From a bacterium (GTDB taxonomy: Bacteria > Electryoneota > Electryoneia > Electryoneales > Electryoneaceae): a stretch of DNA of 64,000 nt. Of this stretch, positions 13,197-32,488 are shown piece after piece. The translations under genes were made by a program, and so were the position numbers. Numbering within the stretch: position 1 is the stretch's first letter; every line of letters starts with the position of its first letter. The stretch spans positions 2,624,001 to 2,688,000 of the forward strand of contig CAXXKJ010000002.1 of assembly GCA_963675295.2 (NCBI GenBank), in the 5' to 3' direction. The notes beneath the pieces are model-generated. The model searched no databases and was not told the origin of the DNA. It was given only the letters and a program-made list of their open reading frames with translations.

Positions 13197-14933
13197 TCAG
13201 GAATCGGTCATGCACTCCTTCAGCGCGAAGAACAGTGCGCGAGCCGGTTCCTGCTCGAGGTTCACTCGACGGTCGAGCATTTCTTCGGCGATGAACTTCT
13301 TTCCTGCCTTCCAGTCGGAGGCGGACGTAAGTTTCGCAAGGAATCGGTCAAACGGCGCAGCGTCATTCGCGTAGATCTCGCGAACAACCTTGCCACGCAG
13401 TTCACCGGATCGGAGTGACGCGAAGCGGTCCTTCTGCGGCCGGGGTTTCTCGGCAACCTGAACCGGGATTCCCGGTTCGACATCACGCAAGCCCTTCATC
13501 TGTGGAACGCTGCGTGAGGTCATGCCGTTAACCGTTCCGACCGCGGGAGTAGGCCCTTCCTCGTCGTCATCCTCCCCCGAGTCGTCCTCGTCGTCATCGT
13601 AATCGATCACATCCTTGCCGAACAGGTACTCGATCGCCTCGAGATCGTCATCATCGAGGTCGTCGAGATCCCGCACGTGAAAACGGTTTGGATCCATTTC
13701 GTGTGGTTCTCCTTGCTGGTCACTTTCCGTCGTGACGGTATCGTCAGTTGATTCGTCGGGAGCGGATTCACCGGTAGCTAGCGGCTGTTCCTCTTCCCCA
13801 TGGTCCGGCTCAGGTGTGGCCTCAGCCATGTCGTTATCGGCAGGTTCTTCATCTTCGATCACTTCATCAACGGGTTCTTCGGACTGCCTGCCAGTGTCCT
13901 GATTTTCCTCCTGGTCCTGCACGGGTTCGGTTGACTGATCGCTCGTTTCATCAACCGGAGACGGGTAATCCGCTGAGGAGGCAGCGAGATTGTCATCGTC
14001 CGTGGTGTCGTCCACAAACGGTTCATCCTCGAAGGATGGTTCATCGTAAGGTTCCGCCACCACCTCATGCTGAGGCTCGGGTTCCGGTTCAGATGCGCTC
14101 TGTGTTTCCGGCTCCGGTTCTGACGTTACTGCAGTGATATCCAGTTCTGGAACCGGAGTAGCTTCATCAGGAACGGCATCCGGGATGGGTGGTGCCGCGG
14201 TGAGGCCGATGGCTTCCGGCCCACCGCGTTTCACCATCAACGCGTAGCGTTTCAGGATACGGATGATTTCGTCACGGGAGGCGACATCAACGCCAATGTC
14301 CTGCTCTAGCATCAGGGCTTTCGCCCACGTCCGCGCGCCACGATTTTCCAGGTACGGCAGCAGGTCATTCAGCTTGATCGGTTCGGTGGTCAGGCCGGTT
14401 GTTTGCAGGATCTCCAGGACTGCGTCGCGGGACTGTTTGGTGGTCCAGGTATCGTAGGCATTCTGGAATGCACGCAGGAACCCGCCACGGTCGAGCACTT
14501 TGTTCGGCGGTACATCGAGATACTTGACGCAGGCTTCGATGACCGGGTGTTCTTCAGATGGATCGAACTGGTTAAACACGTCAGCTGCGGAAGCGTTCAC
14601 TTTGCGGCGGAACAAGCGGACGGCCAGTTTGTCGAATTCGTGACCGGGCCGTGGCGGAAGGGCGTCGTAGAAGTCTTCCACCACGTGACGGACGTCATCG
14701 CCCGGCAGACGCCAGCTCTGCGCCATGGCGTCCACGAGCTGCCGTACCGCTTCCTGACGGCGGAGGTCGAGCTGGCCGTCGTGGGCGAACGCGTCGGCGC
14801 GGTGAACGGCTTCGTCCCGTGCGAAATTATCGAGCCGGATCCGGCATTCTTCGGGAATACTTTCCCAGTCGACCGGTGAGATGTACTTCTCCGCCCGATA
14901 AGTTTTCAGCCATGCATCGAGACGTTCTTCCAT
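13197..14933 (-). CDS. Hypothetical protein: helical N-domain, long acidic Pro/Glu/Asp-rich linker and small helical C-domain
   Basis: 578 aa ORF with an RBS-like AGAGGGG before the ATG. The central region is dominated by E, D, P and T. Confidence 0.8.
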   Translation of the reverse strand: MEERLDAWLKTYRAEKYISPVDWESIPEECRIRLDNFARDEAVHRADAFAHDGQLDLRRQEAVRQLVDAMAQSWRLPGDDVRHVVEDFYDALPPRPGHEFDKLAVRLFRRKVNASAADVFNQFDPSEEHPVIEACVKYLDVPPNKVLDRGGFLRAFQNAYDTWTTKQSRDAVLEILQTTGLTTEPIKLNDLLPYLENRGARTWAKALMLEQDIGVDVASRDEIIRILKRYALMVKRGGPEAIGLTAAPPIPDAVPDEATPVPELDITAVTSEPEPETQSASEPEPEPQHEVVAEPYDEPSFEDEPFVDDTTDDDNLAASSADYPSPVDETSDQSTEPVQDQEENQDTGRQSEEPVDEVIEDEEPADNDMAEATPEPDHGEEEQPLATGESAPDESTDDTVTTESDQQGEPHEMDPNRFHVRDLDDLDDDDLEAIEYLFGKDVIDYDDDEDDSGEDDDEEGPTPAVGTVNGMTSRSVPQMKGLRDVEPGIPVQVAEKPRPQKDRFASLRSGELRGKVVREIYANDAAPFDRFLAKLTSASDWKAGKKFIAEEMLDRRVNLEQEPARALFFALKECMTDS

Positions 14934-15148
14934 GATCCCCTCTATCCTGCGGACACTGTACCCACGCGCAACTGTCAGCTGGTATTGTCGGCACTGGCGA
15001 ACTCCGGCGCAAGAGGAAATCTCTGCCGGTCCCGGTCAAAGTTGCCGACTATCGAAGAGTCGGGAGACATTTTTCGAGCACGGTGATGATTCGCTGAAAA
15101 CGTTGTGGTGATTGAGATTCAGGGCAAGCTTCGTGTGAAGAAGTAAAA

Positions 15149-15164
15149 TGGCATGGGCTTTGAA
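15149..15164 (+). promoter_or_regulatory. Candidate sigma54 (-24/-12) promoter
   Basis: TGGCATGGGCTTTGAA: TGGCA at -24 with exact spacing to TTG(A) at -12. GA replaces the canonical GC. Confidence 0.55.
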
Positions 15165-15174
15165 AGTGGAACGG

Positions 15175-15257
15175 GCAGGAGCTCAGCTCCACCCTTCCCT
15201 CCTTTCCGCTTGGAAAGGAACCCTTGCTACAGCATGTCCAGCGGGCATGCTGTTTTT
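15175..15257 (+). ncRNA. Candidate small regulatory RNA (~83 nt)
   Basis: Begins at the predicted +1 of the sigma54-like promoter, folds into a closed multi-stem structure with CU-rich linkers, and ends in the terminator ACAGCATGTCC-AGC-GGGCATGCTGT-TTTT. There is no credible plus-strand CDS here. Confidence 0.55.
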
Positions 15258-15265
15258 CTCTCTGG

Positions 15266-15300
15266 AGAGAAATCGCACGGACCAGCGTTGACCCGTGCGA
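15266..15300 (-). terminator. Terminator of the chemotaxis operon
   Basis: Minus strand TCGCACGGGTCA-ACGC-TGGTCCGTGCGA-TTTCTCT, about 30 nt after the cheX stop. Confidence 0.65.
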
Positions 15301-15329
15301 AGAAATATCGTCCCCTGCAAGATGCAGCC

Positions 15330-15800
15330 TCAATCGGAGAGCTTCATCGTGACTTCCATCATGAAGGTCTCATCCTTGACCGTAAACGGAATCACGATAA
15401 CCGGCGTTTCCGCCTTGTGCCGGATGGAGTGATTCTGCCCAACGACGACGGACGGCACGGAGATGTTGAACGACAGCCCCTGCCCCGCCATCTCGGTCTT
15501 GGCTCCACCTGCGACGATGTTTGCAACCTCTCCGATACAGTCTTCCACATCCCGGTTGATTTCGTCGGTGGCTTCGCCGGTCATCCCCTCGAAGAGCATC
15601 AAGGCGGCTTTTTCCGGGAAGCTGAGGGCGACCGACCCCATGATCTTTTTCTCGGCGAATCCAATCACGCCGGTGATGTCACCGGATGTTTTCGAATTGT
15701 CCTTGACGAATGGGGTTGCCGCAACCGCGTCCAAGTCCATCATCATTTTCAGCGTGTTGATGAGGGAATTGATGAAAGGGTTGATGTATCGTACGTCCAT
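15330..15800 (-). CDS. cheX: Chemotaxis phosphatase CheX
   Basis: MDVRYINPFI, GDITGVIG, DCIGEVANIVAG (ExxN) and ISVPSVV. Confidence 0.9.
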   Translation of the reverse strand: MDVRYINPFINSLINTLKMMMDLDAVAATPFVKDNSKTSGDITGVIGFAEKKIMGSVALSFPEKAALMLFEGMTGEATDEINRDVEDCIGEVANIVAGGAKTEMAGQGLSFNISVPSVVVGQNHSIRHKAETPVIVIPFTVKDETFMMEVTMKLSD

Positions 15801-15820
15801 GGTAGGCTCTGTCTCCCGGT

Positions 15821-16177
15821 TCAGCCGACAACGGCCTCAATCTTTTCGAGGATGATCTGCTTTGTAAATGGCTTGACAATGTAATCATTTACACCGTTCC
15901 TGAGGGCCTCGAGAACTTCTTCTTTTGCACCTTCAGTGGTGATCATGATAATCGGAACGGACGAGAAATTCGGGTTGTGCCGAATTTCCTTCACCAGGCT
16001 AAGCCCGTCCATAACGGGCATGTTCCAGTCTGTCAACACGAGTTCAATGCCAGACATGCGGCTCAATGCTTCCACCCCGTTGGAGGCCTCGACAATATCC
16101 GTGTGGCCGGCCTGCTTCAGGTGGTTGATAATGATTCGACGCATGGTGGCAGAATCGTCCACCACGAGGATCTTCAT
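15821..16177 (-). CDS. cheY: Chemotaxis response regulator CheY
   Basis: MKILVVDDS, LTDWNMPVMDG and YIVKPF. Start set at MKIL (16177). Confidence 0.9.
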   Translation of the reverse strand: MKILVVDDSATMRRIIINHLKQAGHTDIVEASNGVEALSRMSGIELVLTDWNMPVMDGLSLVKEIRHNPNFSSVPIIMITTEGAKEEVLEALRNGVNDYIVKPFTKQIILEKIEAVVG

Positions 16178-16215
16178 CGTGGATCTCCCGTTTCCTAGGT
16201 CTAACTCGCCCGAAA

Positions 16216-16698
16216 TCAGCTGAGTGCGGTGTCGACGAGGACACGCAACAGCCACCCCTCAACAGAGTAATCGATCTGGACCCAGCTCGAGGATGGATCC
16301 TGGAATTCAGCTTTATCCGTCAGCATCCCGAATTCGGGAATGCCGAGATTGTAGATCGTGTTCTCCCCGAACATCTCGACACAGAACCGTCCGGTGAGGG
16401 TGTTCAGGATTTCGTTGACGGCATCCCGTTGATGATCTGGCCCGAGCTCGCCCTCCTCGAACATGCCATAGATCGATTCGGTGATGGATTCCGCGAGCTG
16501 TTTTGACAGGATCAGGACTACTTTTCCCGCACGCGGTTCGAGAAGGTCGATCATGGTGTAGACATTGAGTTCATCAACGACTTCGCAGTCCGGGACCTTA
16601 CGCAGCGGAACGACTTCGGCGAAGGCCATGCTTTCCAATGTACCGGACAGGGCCTTGTCAACGGCTGCGCTCAATGCTTCCTGTTTGCTATCCGCCAT
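16216..16698 (-). CDS. CheX/CheC-like phosphatase family protein
   Basis: TLESMAF and DAVNEILNTLTG (ExxN), then LGIP; located between two cheY genes. Confidence 0.7.
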   Translation of the reverse strand: MADSKQEALSAAVDKALSGTLESMAFAEVVPLRKVPDCEVVDELNVYTMIDLLEPRAGKVVLILSKQLAESITESIYGMFEEGELGPDHQRDAVNEILNTLTGRFCVEMFGENTIYNLGIPEFGMLTDKAEFQDPSSSWVQIDYSVEGWLLRVLVDTALS

Positions 16699-28332: not shown

Positions 28333-29661
28333 ATGATCAAAATCAGTTCGCTAGGTCTTTTGCCGCTGCTGGTGTCACTCGCATTTGCCCTCCCGATCTC
28401 CGTGATGGCGGAGAATGTCGAGAATGGCGTCTCCGTGTTGTATCACCTCACGGACGAAACGGTCTATCCAGATCATGTGCTGCAGGAGGGTGAAACGGCG
28501 ACGTTGCAGTTCAGCATCGCAAATCTCACGGAACCGTGGACAAATATCGACTGGGCGCTGAACCTGGAACAAACCGGACCGGTTTCCGCACAGACTCTGA
28601 ACGGTATGATTGACGAGATCCCGGTGGGTGCCGAACGTACCGTTTTCCTCTCGATTCCGGTCAGCACTGGCGCGCTTGGGAATCTGCCGGACCGTACCGC
28701 CGCATCCCTGACGCTCGACTCCCCAACTGGCGGAATGACGTATTCCTTCCACCTCTCCCTCCGCAAGGCGGAAGTTTTGCTGATTTCAGACGGGATGGAA
28801 GGTGTGCGCGAAGTGATCGCCCCGGCGTTGGAAGCAGGACACATCGTGTGGGGTTACGCCGGTGTGCCGATGAACGAGCTGCCGCATGAAATGTACGAGG
28901 CATGGACAATCATGGTTGAGGCGGACGCCCGTTACTCGCAGTATCTGTTTACGCAGGAGGATGTGCCGGTGCGGGATTGGTTCCGCTACAGCAACGGCGG
29001 ATCTGTGAGCGGGCTGTACCTGTACGAAACGTACCCCTATGGCGATCCGGAATGGCTGGGCGGATTGGCGTCGGTGTGGAACGATCCGCTCGACGAAACT
29101 ACCTTCCTCGGCTACCCGGACGACCCGATCGCCCAGGGCCAGACGATTGAAGCGTGCAGCTCGGACGGTGTAAGCATCTCCTATCCTTGCTGCGGCAATC
29201 CGGCTATCTTCCTAACTGGTGATGGCATCCCAACGGCGGGCTGGTTTGACTACGGCTGGCGAGTGGCGGACTACGGCTTCTCGCTGGTGCACATGGACAA
29301 TGGCGCCGATGTCGAATTGCCCCGTGATGAACTGATCCGGCGCACTGCCAACTGGCTGGTATACCGCGAGACGAGCGTTCTCGAGCCCATCGAAGAACCT
29401 GCACTGCCGGTTAAGATTGAGCTGGTCGCATACCCGAACCCGTTCAACGCATCCCTGACCATCCAGCTTCGCGGCGAGGGACGGCTCTCCCCCGTCGAGA
29501 TCATCAACGCCAACGGCCGGCTGGTCGAGACCCTCTTCCCTTCCTCAACCCACAGCACACAGCTGAGCTGGAACGCGCAGGGTTATCCGAGTGGGACCTA
29601 CTACGTAAAAACCGCGACACCTAATGGTGCCACGGTTCGAAAAGTCACGTTGCTGAAATAA
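28333..29661 (+). CDS. Secreted protein with T9SS type A-like C-terminal sorting domain
   Basis: Signal peptide; C-terminus AYPNPFN...NGRLV...PSGTYYV...RKVTLLK. Confidence 0.8.
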   Translation: MIKISSLGLLPLLVSLAFALPISVMAENVENGVSVLYHLTDETVYPDHVLQEGETATLQFSIANLTEPWTNIDWALNLEQTGPVSAQTLNGMIDEIPVGAERTVFLSIPVSTGALGNLPDRTAASLTLDSPTGGMTYSFHLSLRKAEVLLISDGMEGVREVIAPALEAGHIVWGYAGVPMNELPHEMYEAWTIMVEADARYSQYLFTQEDVPVRDWFRYSNGGSVSGLYLYETYPYGDPEWLGGLASVWNDPLDETTFLGYPDDPIAQGQTIEACSSDGVSISYPCCGNPAIFLTGDGIPTAGWFDYGWRVADYGFSLVHMDNGADVELPRDELIRRTANWLVYRETSVLEPIEEPALPVKIELVAYPNPFNASLTIQLRGEGRLSPVEIINANGRLVETLFPSSTHSTQLSWNAQGYPSGTYYVKTATPNGATVRKVTLLK

Positions 29662-30674: not shown

Positions 30675-32273
30675 TTAGCGGACCAGCATTGCCTTAAGAG
30701 TTGCAACCTCGCCTTGGGACTGTGCGGTGACGAAGTAGATCCCCGAAGCCTGTGCCGACAGGTTCAGGTTCAACCGGTGTGATCCGGCATTCAAGGTTCC
30801 GTCCAGTACGCTGGCGACCTGACGTCCGGTGACGTCATGCACCGTCACCGCCACGCGCTGCGTCTGCGGCAGACTGAGTTCGATGGTGCTGCTGCCGTTG
30901 AACGGGTTCGGATACAGGCCGGTCAGTTCGAATTCCGCCGGGATGGTGGCGTCGTTCGCGGAGACGGTCGCGTCGGACAAACCGATATCGTGCAGGAACG
31001 CGGCGACATTACCCCCGCCGAGCTTGGTGAACGTGAACGAGTCGCTCGCGAAAACGTTGTTCGGGTTGTTACCGATCTTGCCAACGAGGCTGTATTCACC
31101 ACCAGGCGCGGAAGCAGGGATGTTCTGCGTCAACGGGCGCACGATGGTGTAGTTCGCCGGGATCGGCAACGGCTGCACGTAAGCCAGCGGGCCGTAGGTG
31201 TTGCCGTTTGGCAGGATCGCCTCGGTCCAGCCGGCGGTGACGATCATCTGGTTTGTCGTGTTGGTGATGTAGGCAGTGAACTCCACCGTCCCACCACCCG
31301 GGAAGATGGTCTGGTTCGGAACGGCCGGTTCAAGCGTGAAGATGATATCTTCGCCGGAGAGCCAGTAGCCGACATCAACGAACACCGGGATGTGATCACT
31401 GGCGGCGTGCAAAGCGTCGGCGACTTCCGGCGAGACGACGCTGTTGGTTCCGTTGTTGATCGCCTGGTTGAAGTGGTTGCCGTCGTTGCCGAACGCGGTG
31501 TAGGTGGTCGCGAGAACGTCCCAGCCTTCGCTGTCAAACAGGCTTTCCTGCGCGAGGATGAAATCGAAACGGTCGTCCATGCCGCCAGTCGCACCTCCAC
31601 CGAACGAAGATGTGCGCGGGCTCTGAGTGTGGACAGCCGCCAGGCTGGCATTGTCGTGCCAGTTTCCTGGTGTTTCAATCGGATCTTCAAAACCGGCGTT
31701 CATCAACGCCTGGTAGGCCGGTTCGGAGCTGGTGTAGATATTGAAGTCGCCGCAGAAGAAGAAATCGGTGCTGTACAGGTCTTCCGAGGTCATGTAGCTG
31801 AGCAGATCGAGTACTTCGTCGTACCGGCGATCTTCCTCGCCCTGGCTGGCTTTGAGGTGCGTATTACCAAACCAGATCTCAGGCTCGGTCGGAATGTTCA
31901 GCGCGGCGAACTGGTAGATCTCATGGTTGCGCAGGTCGGTGGGCACGGAGGCATGTGACACGAGCTCGAACAGATCGTTGCGGTAAAACGCATATTCGTC
32001 GCTGGTGCCGAGCAGCGGTCCGGGGGTGCGTGACCAGGTACCGTCCAGCACTTCGTCGAGAAAATCGTCCGCGGCGTCGTTGTTGATCACTTCCTGCGCG
32101 AGGATGATGTCCGGATCGATCTCGTTGATGATCGTCGCGAACTCATCATTGCGGTCGTTGCTGGTAGTGCTATAATTCAGCAGATTGTAGGTCATCACAC
32201 GGATGGTATAATCCTGTGCGACGGCAAACGTCGCCAACAGCATGGCGATCAGAACAAGCAGTGTACTGCGCAT
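30675..32273 (-). CDS. Secreted endonuclease/exonuclease/phosphatase (EEP) with Ig-like domain and T9SS-like CTD
   Basis: MTYNLLN, QE, THLKA, GDFN, RFDFI and SDHIPV; C-terminal LYPNPFN...ASGIYFV...KAMLVR. Start set at MRST (32273). Confidence 0.88.
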   Translation of the reverse strand: MRSTLLVLIAMLLATFAVAQDYTIRVMTYNLLNYSTTSNDRNDEFATIINEIDPDIILAQEVINNDAADDFLDEVLDGTWSRTPGPLLGTSDEYAFYRNDLFELVSHASVPTDLRNHEIYQFAALNIPTEPEIWFGNTHLKASQGEEDRRYDEVLDLLSYMTSEDLYSTDFFFCGDFNIYTSSEPAYQALMNAGFEDPIETPGNWHDNASLAAVHTQSPRTSSFGGGATGGMDDRFDFILAQESLFDSEGWDVLATTYTAFGNDGNHFNQAINNGTNSVVSPEVADALHAASDHIPVFVDVGYWLSGEDIIFTLEPAVPNQTIFPGGGTVEFTAYITNTTNQMIVTAGWTEAILPNGNTYGPLAYVQPLPIPANYTIVRPLTQNIPASAPGGEYSLVGKIGNNPNNVFASDSFTFTKLGGGNVAAFLHDIGLSDATVSANDATIPAEFELTGLYPNPFNGSSTIELSLPQTQRVAVTVHDVTGRQVASVLDGTLNAGSHRLNLNLSAQASGIYFVTAQSQGEVATLKAMLVR

Positions 32274-32488
32274 CGTATGCCTCAAACTTACACGTTGGAA
32301 ATCTTGACGTTGCGTGAAACGGGTGATTCCCGCTTCCAATCTTTGAGTATGATACCGTTTCCACGACGAGTCAATGTGAGACCGGTCTTTTGGAGCTTTT
32401 TGCTTTCGTGATGGGAGTTCGTGCCTGACTATCACACGAGTCTTCTGAACCAGTACATTAGCAAAACTCAATCCCGACGCTGGTAGCT

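Follow-up and report, generated by a model that had tools for sequence, protein, structure and literature searches.

Does the interval between a divergently transcribed gene of no Pfam family and a convergent chemotaxis operon ending with cheX hold a gene of its own and, if so, which message would that gene control? The question is raised by a 64,000-nt stretch of DNA (the window; position 1 is its first letter) from a bacterium of the family Electryoneaceae (NCBI GenBank assembly GCA_963675295.2, contig CAXXKJ010000002.1, positions 2,624,001 to 2,688,000 of the forward strand; the genome is denoted G000). An earlier note, made from the letters alone, had described at 15149-15257 a sigma-54-type promoter followed by a structured, CU-rich small RNA (sRNA), and all the sequence features listed there were recovered at their positions when the window was inspected again. 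The locus is very likely a genuine gene for a small regulatory RNA not described before and kept throughout much of one family of uncultured bacteria; it is called sRNA-1 below. It would represent a new sRNA family, though of a kind already known, and its predicted target is well supported. As to function, we give a probability of about 0.6 to the reading that sRNA-1 is a trans-acting, base-pairing RNA of ~83 nt, made from a sigma-54-dependent promoter, ended by its own terminator and directed to a flagellin messenger, repression being the likeliest effect. The parts of the locus are the following (MFE, minimum free energy):

15149..15164, + strand: sigma-54-type -24/-12 promoter, TGGCAT-N5-TTGA, sequence TGGCATGGGCTTTGAA (sequence; relatives)
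15175..15258, + strand: sRNA-1, predicted small RNA of ~83 nt (fold, covariance-model matches, no Rfam match)
15178..15190, + strand: hairpin 1, GGAGC-UCA-GCUCC (MFE fold; covariation)
15191..15199, + strand: CU-rich linker ACCCUUCCC (alignments; conserved in the genus only)
15200..15219, + strand: hairpin 2, 5' arm UCCUUUCC, 3' arm GGAAAGGA (MFE fold; covariation)
15220..15228, + strand: single-stranded seed ACCCUUGCU, including CCCUUGCU at 15221-15228 (unpaired in MFE fold)
15229..15258, + strand: intrinsic terminator, 11-bp stem, 3-nt loop, U5 run (consensus scan)

The -24/-12 geometry of 15149-15164 and the start predicted from it, +1 at G15175 with a transcript beginning GCAGG, agree in position with what had been proposed. 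Folding of 15175-15257 with RNAfold gave an MFE of -36.6 kcal/mol, against -22.2 +/- 2.95 kcal/mol for 200 dinucleotide shuffles (z = -4.89), none of which was equally stable. The MFE structure returns the two hairpins and the strong terminator of the earlier note, the terminator stem being ACAGCAUGUCC/GGGCAUGCUGU (15229-15253), followed by the U run. Terminator-like sites detected by consensus scan were 3, vs. 0.6 expected, and no sigma-70-type promoter was found by consensus scan of the locus. The word ACCCUU, said to occur twice, is indeed found at 15191-15196 and again at 15220-15225. The pairing of GCAGG with CUUGC, thought to close a junction around the hairpins, stands only in part: the MFE fold is closed by 3 bp only (GCA/UGC), and the closing stem is missing already within the genus, in G002 and G003, so that the junction is not a conserved feature and was discarded as such.

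The earlier note could not assign the RNA to any known family, and the Rfam search bears this out. No match overlaps 15140-15270, and the locus belongs to no Rfam family; the seven matches found in 14000-16500 are weak (E 2.1-6.7), all far below gathering thresholds, and all outside 15140-15270. A search of the full-text literature returned no description of sRNA-1, whose carriers are uncultured genomes.

Homologous blocks were found by BLAST in three other species of the genus, at 91%, 79% and 73% identity. In the same-genus alignment conservation begins at the -24 box and ceases where the terminator ends, with divergent flanks on either side. A first covariance model, made from these four genus sequences, gave one strong match each in 13 of the 16 genomes of the family, representing 8 of 11 genera (E 3.5e-23 to 1.5e-6); a second model, made from the 13 family copies, returned the same 13 among 79 genomes of the whole phylum, and none in the 63 genomes of eight other families. 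A weak match of the first model in G005 (E 0.48) does not resemble sRNA-1 and was set aside. Scanning one genome per species (185,579 species) with the core pattern gave nine loci, seven being family copies and two chance matches in coding sequence, and the same scan of metagenomes seven loci, four being copies positive with the model and three due to chance.

Promoter and hairpins are kept in relatives, as had been expected of a genuine RNA gene: all 13 copies found by covariance model carry a -24/-12 element, and their stems covary. Across the 13 aligned sequences paired cells amount to 96.3%, a level that none of 500 shuffles reached (83.1%), and double changes affect 17 of the 24 pairs. 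Fitting of the alignment to the model gives the structure an advantage, but the double changes of hairpin 1 and terminator remain clear, as do the slid controls, in which partners shifted by 1-3 columns leave 45-49% of cells paired. The stems differ in their mode of conservation. All five pairs of hairpin 1 vary on both sides (87.9% of cells paired), hairpin 2 has four unvarying and three double-changed pairs out of seven (100% paired), and 8 of the 11 terminator pairs are double-changed (100% paired). Gene, promoter motif, stems and terminator are thus conserved, as determined by computation.

Sequence conservation is unevenly distributed along the RNA. The invariant core, family-wide, is made up by CUCCUUUC-loop-GAAAGGAG, then CCCUUGCU, then the terminator; CCCUUGCU is identical in 13 of 13 copies and unpaired in the MFE fold. 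Hairpin 1 differs in sequence between genera, its stem being retained. The word CUGCGC(A) was observed in the hairpin 1 loop of six genomes from five other genera (L038, L040, L041, L042, L043, L044), on stems that differ, and is missing in the genus of the window. The linker ACCCUUCCC is peculiar to that genus, unrelated linkers being found elsewhere in the family. The unpaired ACCCUUCCC had been seen as the effector, a role that does not fit its genus-specific nature; the single strand that is invariant family-wide is CCCUUGCU, together with hairpin 2. The claim of an independent plus-strand RNA gene survives in its essentials, promoter and terminator of its own and a conserved structure, and loses two of its details, junction and linker.

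These patterns bear on the possibility that no functional RNA is made here, the conserved parts being DNA-level elements (a bidirectional cheX terminator, or sites serving the divergent gene) or belonging to a small open reading frame (ORF; 15148-15291 or 15224-15352). Both ORFs exist, and the public RNA run does not reach the locus: contigs were compared from 4 of 14 public sequencing runs, a single one being an RNA run, the contig of which spans 14900-15046 only. The che operon, on the other hand, has its own terminator on the minus strand, found at 15300-15273 in keeping with the earlier note, and the RNA is retained in genera with no adjacent cheX. Indels of 4 nt and 1 nt occur inside the block within the genus, and neither ORF has a Pfam match. 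Within-genus indels combined with compensatory stem substitutions are the pattern of an RNA, not of coding sequence; on these grounds the small-ORF reading was rejected, and the absence of a functional RNA is regarded as very unlikely.

The sigma-54-type promoter

The sigma-54 consensus is TGGCAC-N5-TTGC, with GG at -25/-24, GC at -13/-12, and 10 nt in between. In the window the GG of the -24 box lies at 15150-15151, and GA, at 15162-15163, is the -13/-12 pair. A GG-N10-G element is located 5' of sRNA-1 in all 13 family genome copies and in all four metagenome copies. A strict regular expression fits 11 of the 13 family promoters, those of G009 and G012 keeping the GG-N10-G spacing. The -24 box of the 13 copies reads TGGCAY, with the exception of TGGTAC (once) and CGGCAY (twice), and is followed 5 nt on by xxG. 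The fit of the -24 box to the consensus is almost perfect; the -12 pair is GC in six copies, GT in four, and GA in three. The surroundings of the promoter are unalignable between genera, which indicates that the -24/-12 element is selectively conserved.

A check for rpoN in the genome was positive (PF04552, 177.3 bits, G000:C2:3489852-3490325), and the sigma-54 activator domain (PF00158) has 25 matches, 18 above 200 bits. Bacteroidetes-type sigma-A promoters feature a -7 box of the type TAnnTTTG. The reading of CTTTG as such a box was considered and rejected: TA is missing, the conserved part is TGGCAY 5 nt upstream, and six genomes have TGC.

Near-consensus sigma-54 sites upstream of called genes are 34 in the genome, and concern 33 genes (32 given to Pfam). 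A flgB-like rod gene (135-aa Flg_bb_rod; G000:C2:2930121-2930528, - strand) is among them, with TGGCATATGGGTTGCT 47 nt before its start, and flagellar rod genes of this organism thus look sigma-54-dependent; no 8-mer is shared by this promoter and the region upstream of sRNA-1. A weaker -24/-12 match precedes a 98-aa ORF directly 5' of fliA (C2:2897879-2898930, - strand). Taken together, the flgB-like and pre-fliA sites may hint at a flagellar cascade leading from sigma-54 to sigma-28. Other genes with sigma-54-like sites include two HSP20 genes, a thioredoxin gene, and three genes for MacB-type transporters. The top consensus matches genome-wide (11 of 11 positions) both precede HSP20 genes (C2:3859948-3860388 and C2:2140112-2140552).

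Another element is found ~112-130 nt 5' of the predicted +1, where a CCGACT-N7-AGTCGG palindrome (15045-15063), preserved in G000 and G001, is preceded by AAAGTTGCC (window 15040-15063). AAAG(A)TTGCC is seen again in G008 and G013, and TTGCC/GGCAA words occur, ~90-130 nt upstream, in most relatives. The contig of the RNA run terminates at 15046, inside the 15040-15063 element, which may serve to bind an activator or mark where the divergent mRNA begins.

The flagellin leader as predicted target

The 16S rRNA of this genome ends with GGAUCACCUCCUUUCU; the 5' arm of hairpin 2, UCCUUUCC, which together with the preceding CC reads CCUCCUUUC, is therefore a copy of the anti-Shine-Dalgarno sequence. 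The 3' arm, GGAAAGGA, is Shine-Dalgarno-like, and complementary to UUCCUUU in the leader of a flagellin gene:

G000:C2:2875454-2876284, - strand: predicted target, a flagellin paralogue, outside the window (sigma-28-type promoter)

This gene emerged from a scan of the start regions of 3371 genes, called with a codon-score caller (calling by ORF length misplaced cheX and cheR). The complement of the seed, AGCAAGGG, occurs 93 times in the genome, 11 of the occurrences lying between -80 and +30 relative to called starts; GCAAGGG is enriched around starts, a result confounded by the preference of the caller for Shine-Dalgarno-like sequences. Thirteen of the 27 candidates bearing AGCAAGG were given to Pfam. 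One is the flagellin (PF00669, 9.6e-42; PF00700, 1.4e-21), the others being pyruvate kinase, a BatD protein, type IX secretion substrates, and further unrelated genes.

Genomes of the family have 1-9 flagellin matches each, and the upstream regions of 30 out of 65 were read, in addition to those of G014 and G010. In each of the 16 genomes one flagellin paralogue is preceded by TAAAG/TCAAG-N14-16-CCGATAN, which we take to be the sigma-28 pattern, and FliA is encoded in the genome of the window (247.5 bits). AGCAAGGG starts 7 nt (once 8) past the -10 box in all of the 15 tabulated leaders, G010 being the sixteenth, which places it at or beside the predicted start of the mRNA, with 40-60 nt left to the ATG. 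Complementarity to a flagellin leader is hence found in every family genome (16 of 16), in the form of AGCAAGGG(G)UUCC, which matches the invariant part of the sRNA, in the leader of the sigma-28-type flagellin. The composite pattern CGATA-N7-8-AGCAAGGG is present in 16 of 16 family genomes vs. 2 of 63 others, and its reversed control is absent from the family. Of eight matches inspected further, seven (one each in the family genomes G003, G006, G012 and G013, and three in the two other genomes, G021 with one and G026 with two) fall within coding sequence, have no -35 box, and were discarded as chance. No motif was found in flagellin leaders of two other families (G019, G021), 5 of the 63 genomes having been searched, 3 with flagellin. 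The association with motility proposed in the earlier note is thereby strengthened, since it rests on a conserved predicted target, not merely on the adjacency of cheX.

Pairing was scored in a cofold scan as ddG, the energy of the complex minus that of the two separate folds; duplex folding of the whole sRNA was dropped, the duplexes being unrealistically long. The flagellin leader is third of 3371 (-19.2 kcal/mol, the 0.1 percentile being -18.8), a score reached by none of 300 dinucleotide-shuffled sRNA bodies (mean -3.7, standard deviation 2.8). The complex counts 44 intermolecular pairs, from the 5' end of the mRNA through the start codon. The seed contacts mRNA residues -44..-37, AAAGGAA residues -35..-29, the loop and 5' arm of hairpin 2 residues -23..-14, UCC and CACC the ribosome-binding site GGAGGUG, and part of hairpin 1 the start codon. 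Cognate duplexes between sRNAs and leaders range from -21 to -35 kcal/mol for the 12 motif leaders analyzed (z -3.6 to -6.7), with none of 300 shuffles as good in 11 of the 12, whereas z is only -2.6 to +1.0 for 13 non-motif flagellin leaders; since leaders entered the motif group by carrying the seed complement, independent evidence comes solely from pairing that reaches past 8 nt.

We infer the production of sRNA-1, its dependence on sigma-54, its binding to flagellin mRNA in vivo and the direction of its effect. The seed CCCUUGCU (15221-15228) would pair with AGCAAGGG, located right at the start of the sigma-28-type flagellin mRNA, and the pairing would extend into the 3' arm of hairpin 2 (GGAAAGGA with UUCCUUU). 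Hairpin 2 would open, releasing the 5' arm, and the anti-Shine-Dalgarno copy so exposed would cover the flagellin Shine-Dalgarno ~25 nt further along the same leader. The likeliest outcome would be repression of flagellin translation, by which late, sigma-28-dependent filament synthesis would be coupled to a sigma-54-controlled input. Judging from sequence, sRNA-1 probably helps to time or limit the production of the flagellar filament. Base-pairing may be chaperone-independent; neither Hfq (PF17209) nor ProQ (PF04352) was found in G000, which is 92.8% complete, a figure that qualifies all protein absences reported here.

The best two partners in the cofold scan are the genes of a Big_7 protein (G000:C2:330149-331324, + strand) and of a DUF6029 protein (C2:3161183-3162757, - strand), the G-rich ribosome-binding sites of which (GGAGGGGGAG and GAGGGGGAAGGGGAG) match the genus-specific CU-rich linker. 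It is possible, if doubtful, that the sigma-54-type sRNA activates or stabilises the flagellin leader, by shielding the 5' end from decay that depends on it or by opening a weak leader structure, or that it mainly targets other mRNAs with G-rich sites. Pairing begins in fact at the very 5' end of the mRNA; a CU stretch of the leader folds in some genomes onto the interval between Shine-Dalgarno and AUG; and the two top-scoring genes have GGAGGGGGAG-type ribosome-binding sites. Leader structures, however, are weak (-6 to -19 kcal/mol) and unconserved, and a model of activation via leader self-structure sequestering the Shine-Dalgarno was rejected, the folds being inconsistent. Activation also agrees poorly with the exact anti-Shine-Dalgarno copy, positioned to reach the flagellin ribosome-binding site, and other targets with the restriction to one genus of the linker pairing with G-rich sites.

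A further alternative, raised in the earlier note, is that the RNA titrates a protein, as a CsrA/RsmA-type sponge or similar, through GGA motifs. Two GGA motifs are present in GGAAAGGA, and CsrA-FliW is described as controlling flagellin mRNA in other phyla (PMC4894983). Neither CsrA (PF02599) nor FliW (PF02623) was found in G000, however, and the GGA motifs are just two, both paired in the stem of hairpin 2, not in loops. Titration of this sort is hardly credible.

A number of findings weigh against sRNA-1 as a sigma-54-dependent repressor of flagellin. The -12 pair, GA in the window and canonical GC in just 6 of 13 copies, is the chief weakness of the promoter call; no activator (PF00158) gene is found within the window, and an inverted-repeat/shared-word scan 5' of sRNA-1 gave no convincing activator binding site. 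The contig of the RNA run stops short of sRNA-1. Gene calls and start sites are crude, and biased to Shine-Dalgarno-like sequences; two other genes score above flagellin in the cofold scan; and the leader folds, weak and inconsistent as they are, give no sign of effect. In a 13 x 13 cross test the mean of cognate combinations was -27.6 kcal/mol vs. -25.6 for non-cognate ones, a weak difference, 200 of 5000 permutations being as good and the cognate leader being the best in 2 of 13 cases only. Pairing energy comes mostly from the invariant core, and lineage-specific co-variation of sRNA and leader is weak. Finally, G005 and G010 (92% and 87% complete) keep the flagellin leader motif, but neither sRNA-1 nor the paralogue RNA described below, which bears the same seed, was detected in them; the leader motif may thus have another role.

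Paralogous RNA and genomic neighbourhood

Weak matches of the first covariance model led to a second RNA:

G000:C2:1451945-1452041, + strand: paralogue of sRNA-1, outside the window (loci L061 and L188:1501-1597; weak first-model matches)

The paralogue is made up by the module CUUCCCUCC-loop-GGAGGAACCCUUGCUG and a long terminator, and has the same seed as sRNA-1. Its promoter is of sigma-28 type, CTCAAGT-N15-GCCGA(T/A)AG, the -10 being here GCCGAAGA. A model built on four paralogue copies detects it in all four genomes of genus g1, that of the window, and in G007, and cross-detects sRNA-1 (E 1.6e-4). No Rfam match was found at E<=1 on either the paralogue or the flagellin locus. Neighbours of the paralogue are YidD, a type IX secretion substrate and MTHFR, with no motility genes. 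Adding up the distributions of sRNA-1 and its paralogue, 14 of 16 family genomes have at least one seed-bearing RNA.

A more far-reaching idea, offered very tentatively, is that a family-specific sigma-54/sigma-28 pair of sibling RNAs arose as antisense copies of the flagellin leader, replaces the CsrA-FliW checkpoint in a lineage in which neither CsrA and FliW nor Hfq and ProQ were found, and works as a masked anti-Shine-Dalgarno switch with CCCUUGCU as toehold. Strand displacement would in that case expose the anti-Shine-Dalgarno copy, which would occlude the ribosome-binding site only on the tethered mRNA. The reverse complement of sRNA-1, taken as DNA, resembles a diverged copy of the leader (MAFFT; register off by one at the start).

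The genes flanking sRNA-1 in the window are all on the opposite strand:

13197..14933, - strand: 578-aa gene, no Pfam family, divergent from sRNA-1 (Pfam search; relatives)
15273..15300, - strand: che operon's own terminator (consensus scan; 12 pairs, tail TTTCTCTCC)
15330..15800, - strand: cheX, last gene of the convergent che operon (PF13690, 1.9e-22)

Upstream of cheX the che operon encodes CheA, CheR, CheB, CheD, an HDOD protein, two receiver proteins, and a second CheX. The plus-strand ORFs 14932-15111 and 15148-15291 have no Pfam match. The loci of relatives (Pfam was run on 41 of the 94 ORFs listed around them) feature a divergent Pfam-less ORF of 449-742 aa, starting 175-364 nt upstream of sRNA-1; its conserved N-terminus is readable on the opposite strand in 11 of 13 genomes, and in other genera an HDOD gene follows it. 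Homologues of the 578-aa protein with no sRNA-1 upstream are found in G005, G007 and G010. Neighbours of the 578-aa protein in the Atlas are hypothetical proteins, mostly labelled Ignavibacteriota or Bacteroidota.

Variation is larger on the 3' side. A plus-strand ORF follows sRNA-1 in seven genomes (G006, G008, G009, G011, G012, G013, G015), and a creatininase-family (PF02633) gene is found in five of them. A ~400-aa Pfam-less protein and the PF02633 gene are encoded on the same strand as the RNA at loci L074, L076, L080, L081 and L082, and are both missing at the locus of the window's genus, where cheX takes the place of the downstream plus-strand genes (cheX is nearby also in G011 and G014). 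The RNA may then be a cis-acting leader or attenuator of the downstream genes, and a relic in the genus of the window, an arrangement that we consider improbable. In genus g1 those genes are missing at the locus, yet promoter, hairpins, seed and terminator are almost unchanged in all four genomes, and the 403-aa downstream protein was not found in G000. Against a cis role are also the strong and covarying terminator, the distance to the next ORF, ranging from ~57 to 400 nt, and the occurrence of a same-seed paralogue in an unrelated context.

Type IX secretion C-terminal sorting domains (PF18962) were observed in the window at 28333-29661 (+ strand) and 30675-32471 (- strand), and several predicted partners of the sRNA elsewhere in the genome also carry PF18962.

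Comparison with known systems

If the reading of sRNA-1 as a flagellin-directed RNA holds true, a new small-RNA family would be added to those known. An uncultured lineage with type IX protein secretion, in which no usual RNA chaperone was found, would make a case for chaperone-independent, structure-gated anti-Shine-Dalgarno regulation, and CCCUUGCU/AGCAAGGG would be a concrete target pair, testable in a heterologous reporter, for organisms not yet grown.

GlmY and GlmZ (PMC3045617), as well as Qrr, CrcZ and Pxr, are stand-alone sigma-54-dependent sRNA genes, with -24/-12 promoters and the requirement for an enhancer-binding activator. No Rfam model matched the sRNA-1 locus, and targets and partner proteins of those RNAs differ. 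RepG and RNAIII pair with G-rich leader or ribosome-binding sequences through C/U-rich segments located in an exposed loop. In sRNA-1, by contrast, a stem hides the anti-Shine-Dalgarno copy, and it is CCCUUGCU that is exposed as seed; homology was compared through Rfam only. CsrB/RsmZ-type sponges carry many GGA motifs in loops or single strands, whereas sRNA-1 has only the two in the hairpin 2 stem, and PF02599, as said, was not found in the genome (92.8% complete).

FliX, MotR, UhpU and FlgO are sigma-28-dependent flagellar sRNAs of E. coli. Like sRNA-1 as predicted, these UTR-derived RNAs (UTR, untranslated region) act by base-pairing, belong to the flagellar regulon and adjust flagellar synthesis (PMC10578931). 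They differ in being UTR-derived and Hfq-dependent, in coming from Enterobacteria, in having other targets, and in the lack of a sigma-54 promoter. The Campylobacter jejuni RNAs CJnc230 (FlmE) and CJnc170 (FlmR), one RpoN-dependent and the other FliA-dependent, form a pair tuning the flagellar hierarchy (PMC11187230), and are reminiscent of the sigma-54-type sRNA and the sigma-28-type paralogue coexisting in genus g1. The Campylobacter RNAs, however, are mutually unrelated, act in opposite directions, and have flgM and a regulator as their targets in place of flagellin itself; CJnc230 arises by processing of flgE mRNA (PMC11187230). sRNA-1 and its paralogue, in contrast, share one seed. CsrA-FliW exerts post-transcriptional control at the flagellin 5' UTR and ribosome-binding site, but is protein-based (PMC4894983). 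sRNA-1 may fill the niche of CsrA-FliW, CsrA and FliW not having been found in the genome.

The closest analogue is FlaX of Vibrio cholerae, which needs RpoN and FlrA-C (class III), just as sRNA-1 has a sigma-54-type promoter. In the flaB 5' UTR FlaX pairs with three sites, among them the Shine-Dalgarno and standby sites resembling a Shine-Dalgarno, and so keeps 30S subunits off flaB mRNA, which encodes a FliA-dependent flagellin; the order of class III before class IV is thereby reinforced (PMC11879080). Similarly, pairing of sRNA-1 is predicted at two places in a sigma-28-type flagellin leader, the Shine-Dalgarno-like 5' motif AAGGG and the Shine-Dalgarno itself. RNase E releases FlaX from the flaA 3' UTR, and ProQ binds it (PMC11879080), whereas sRNA-1 is intergenic, lies between a gene of unknown function and cheX, and has its own promoter, in a genome in which no ProQ or Hfq was found. 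sRNA-1 belongs moreover to a different phylum, and has no detectable sequence relationship with FlaX. As FlaX is 3'-UTR-derived and ProQ-bound, sRNA-1 would work like FlaX, but is not a member of its family. If so, it would provide a second instance, outside Proteobacteria-type models, of a sigma-54-driven RNA restraining a sigma-28-driven flagellin, as in Vibrio.

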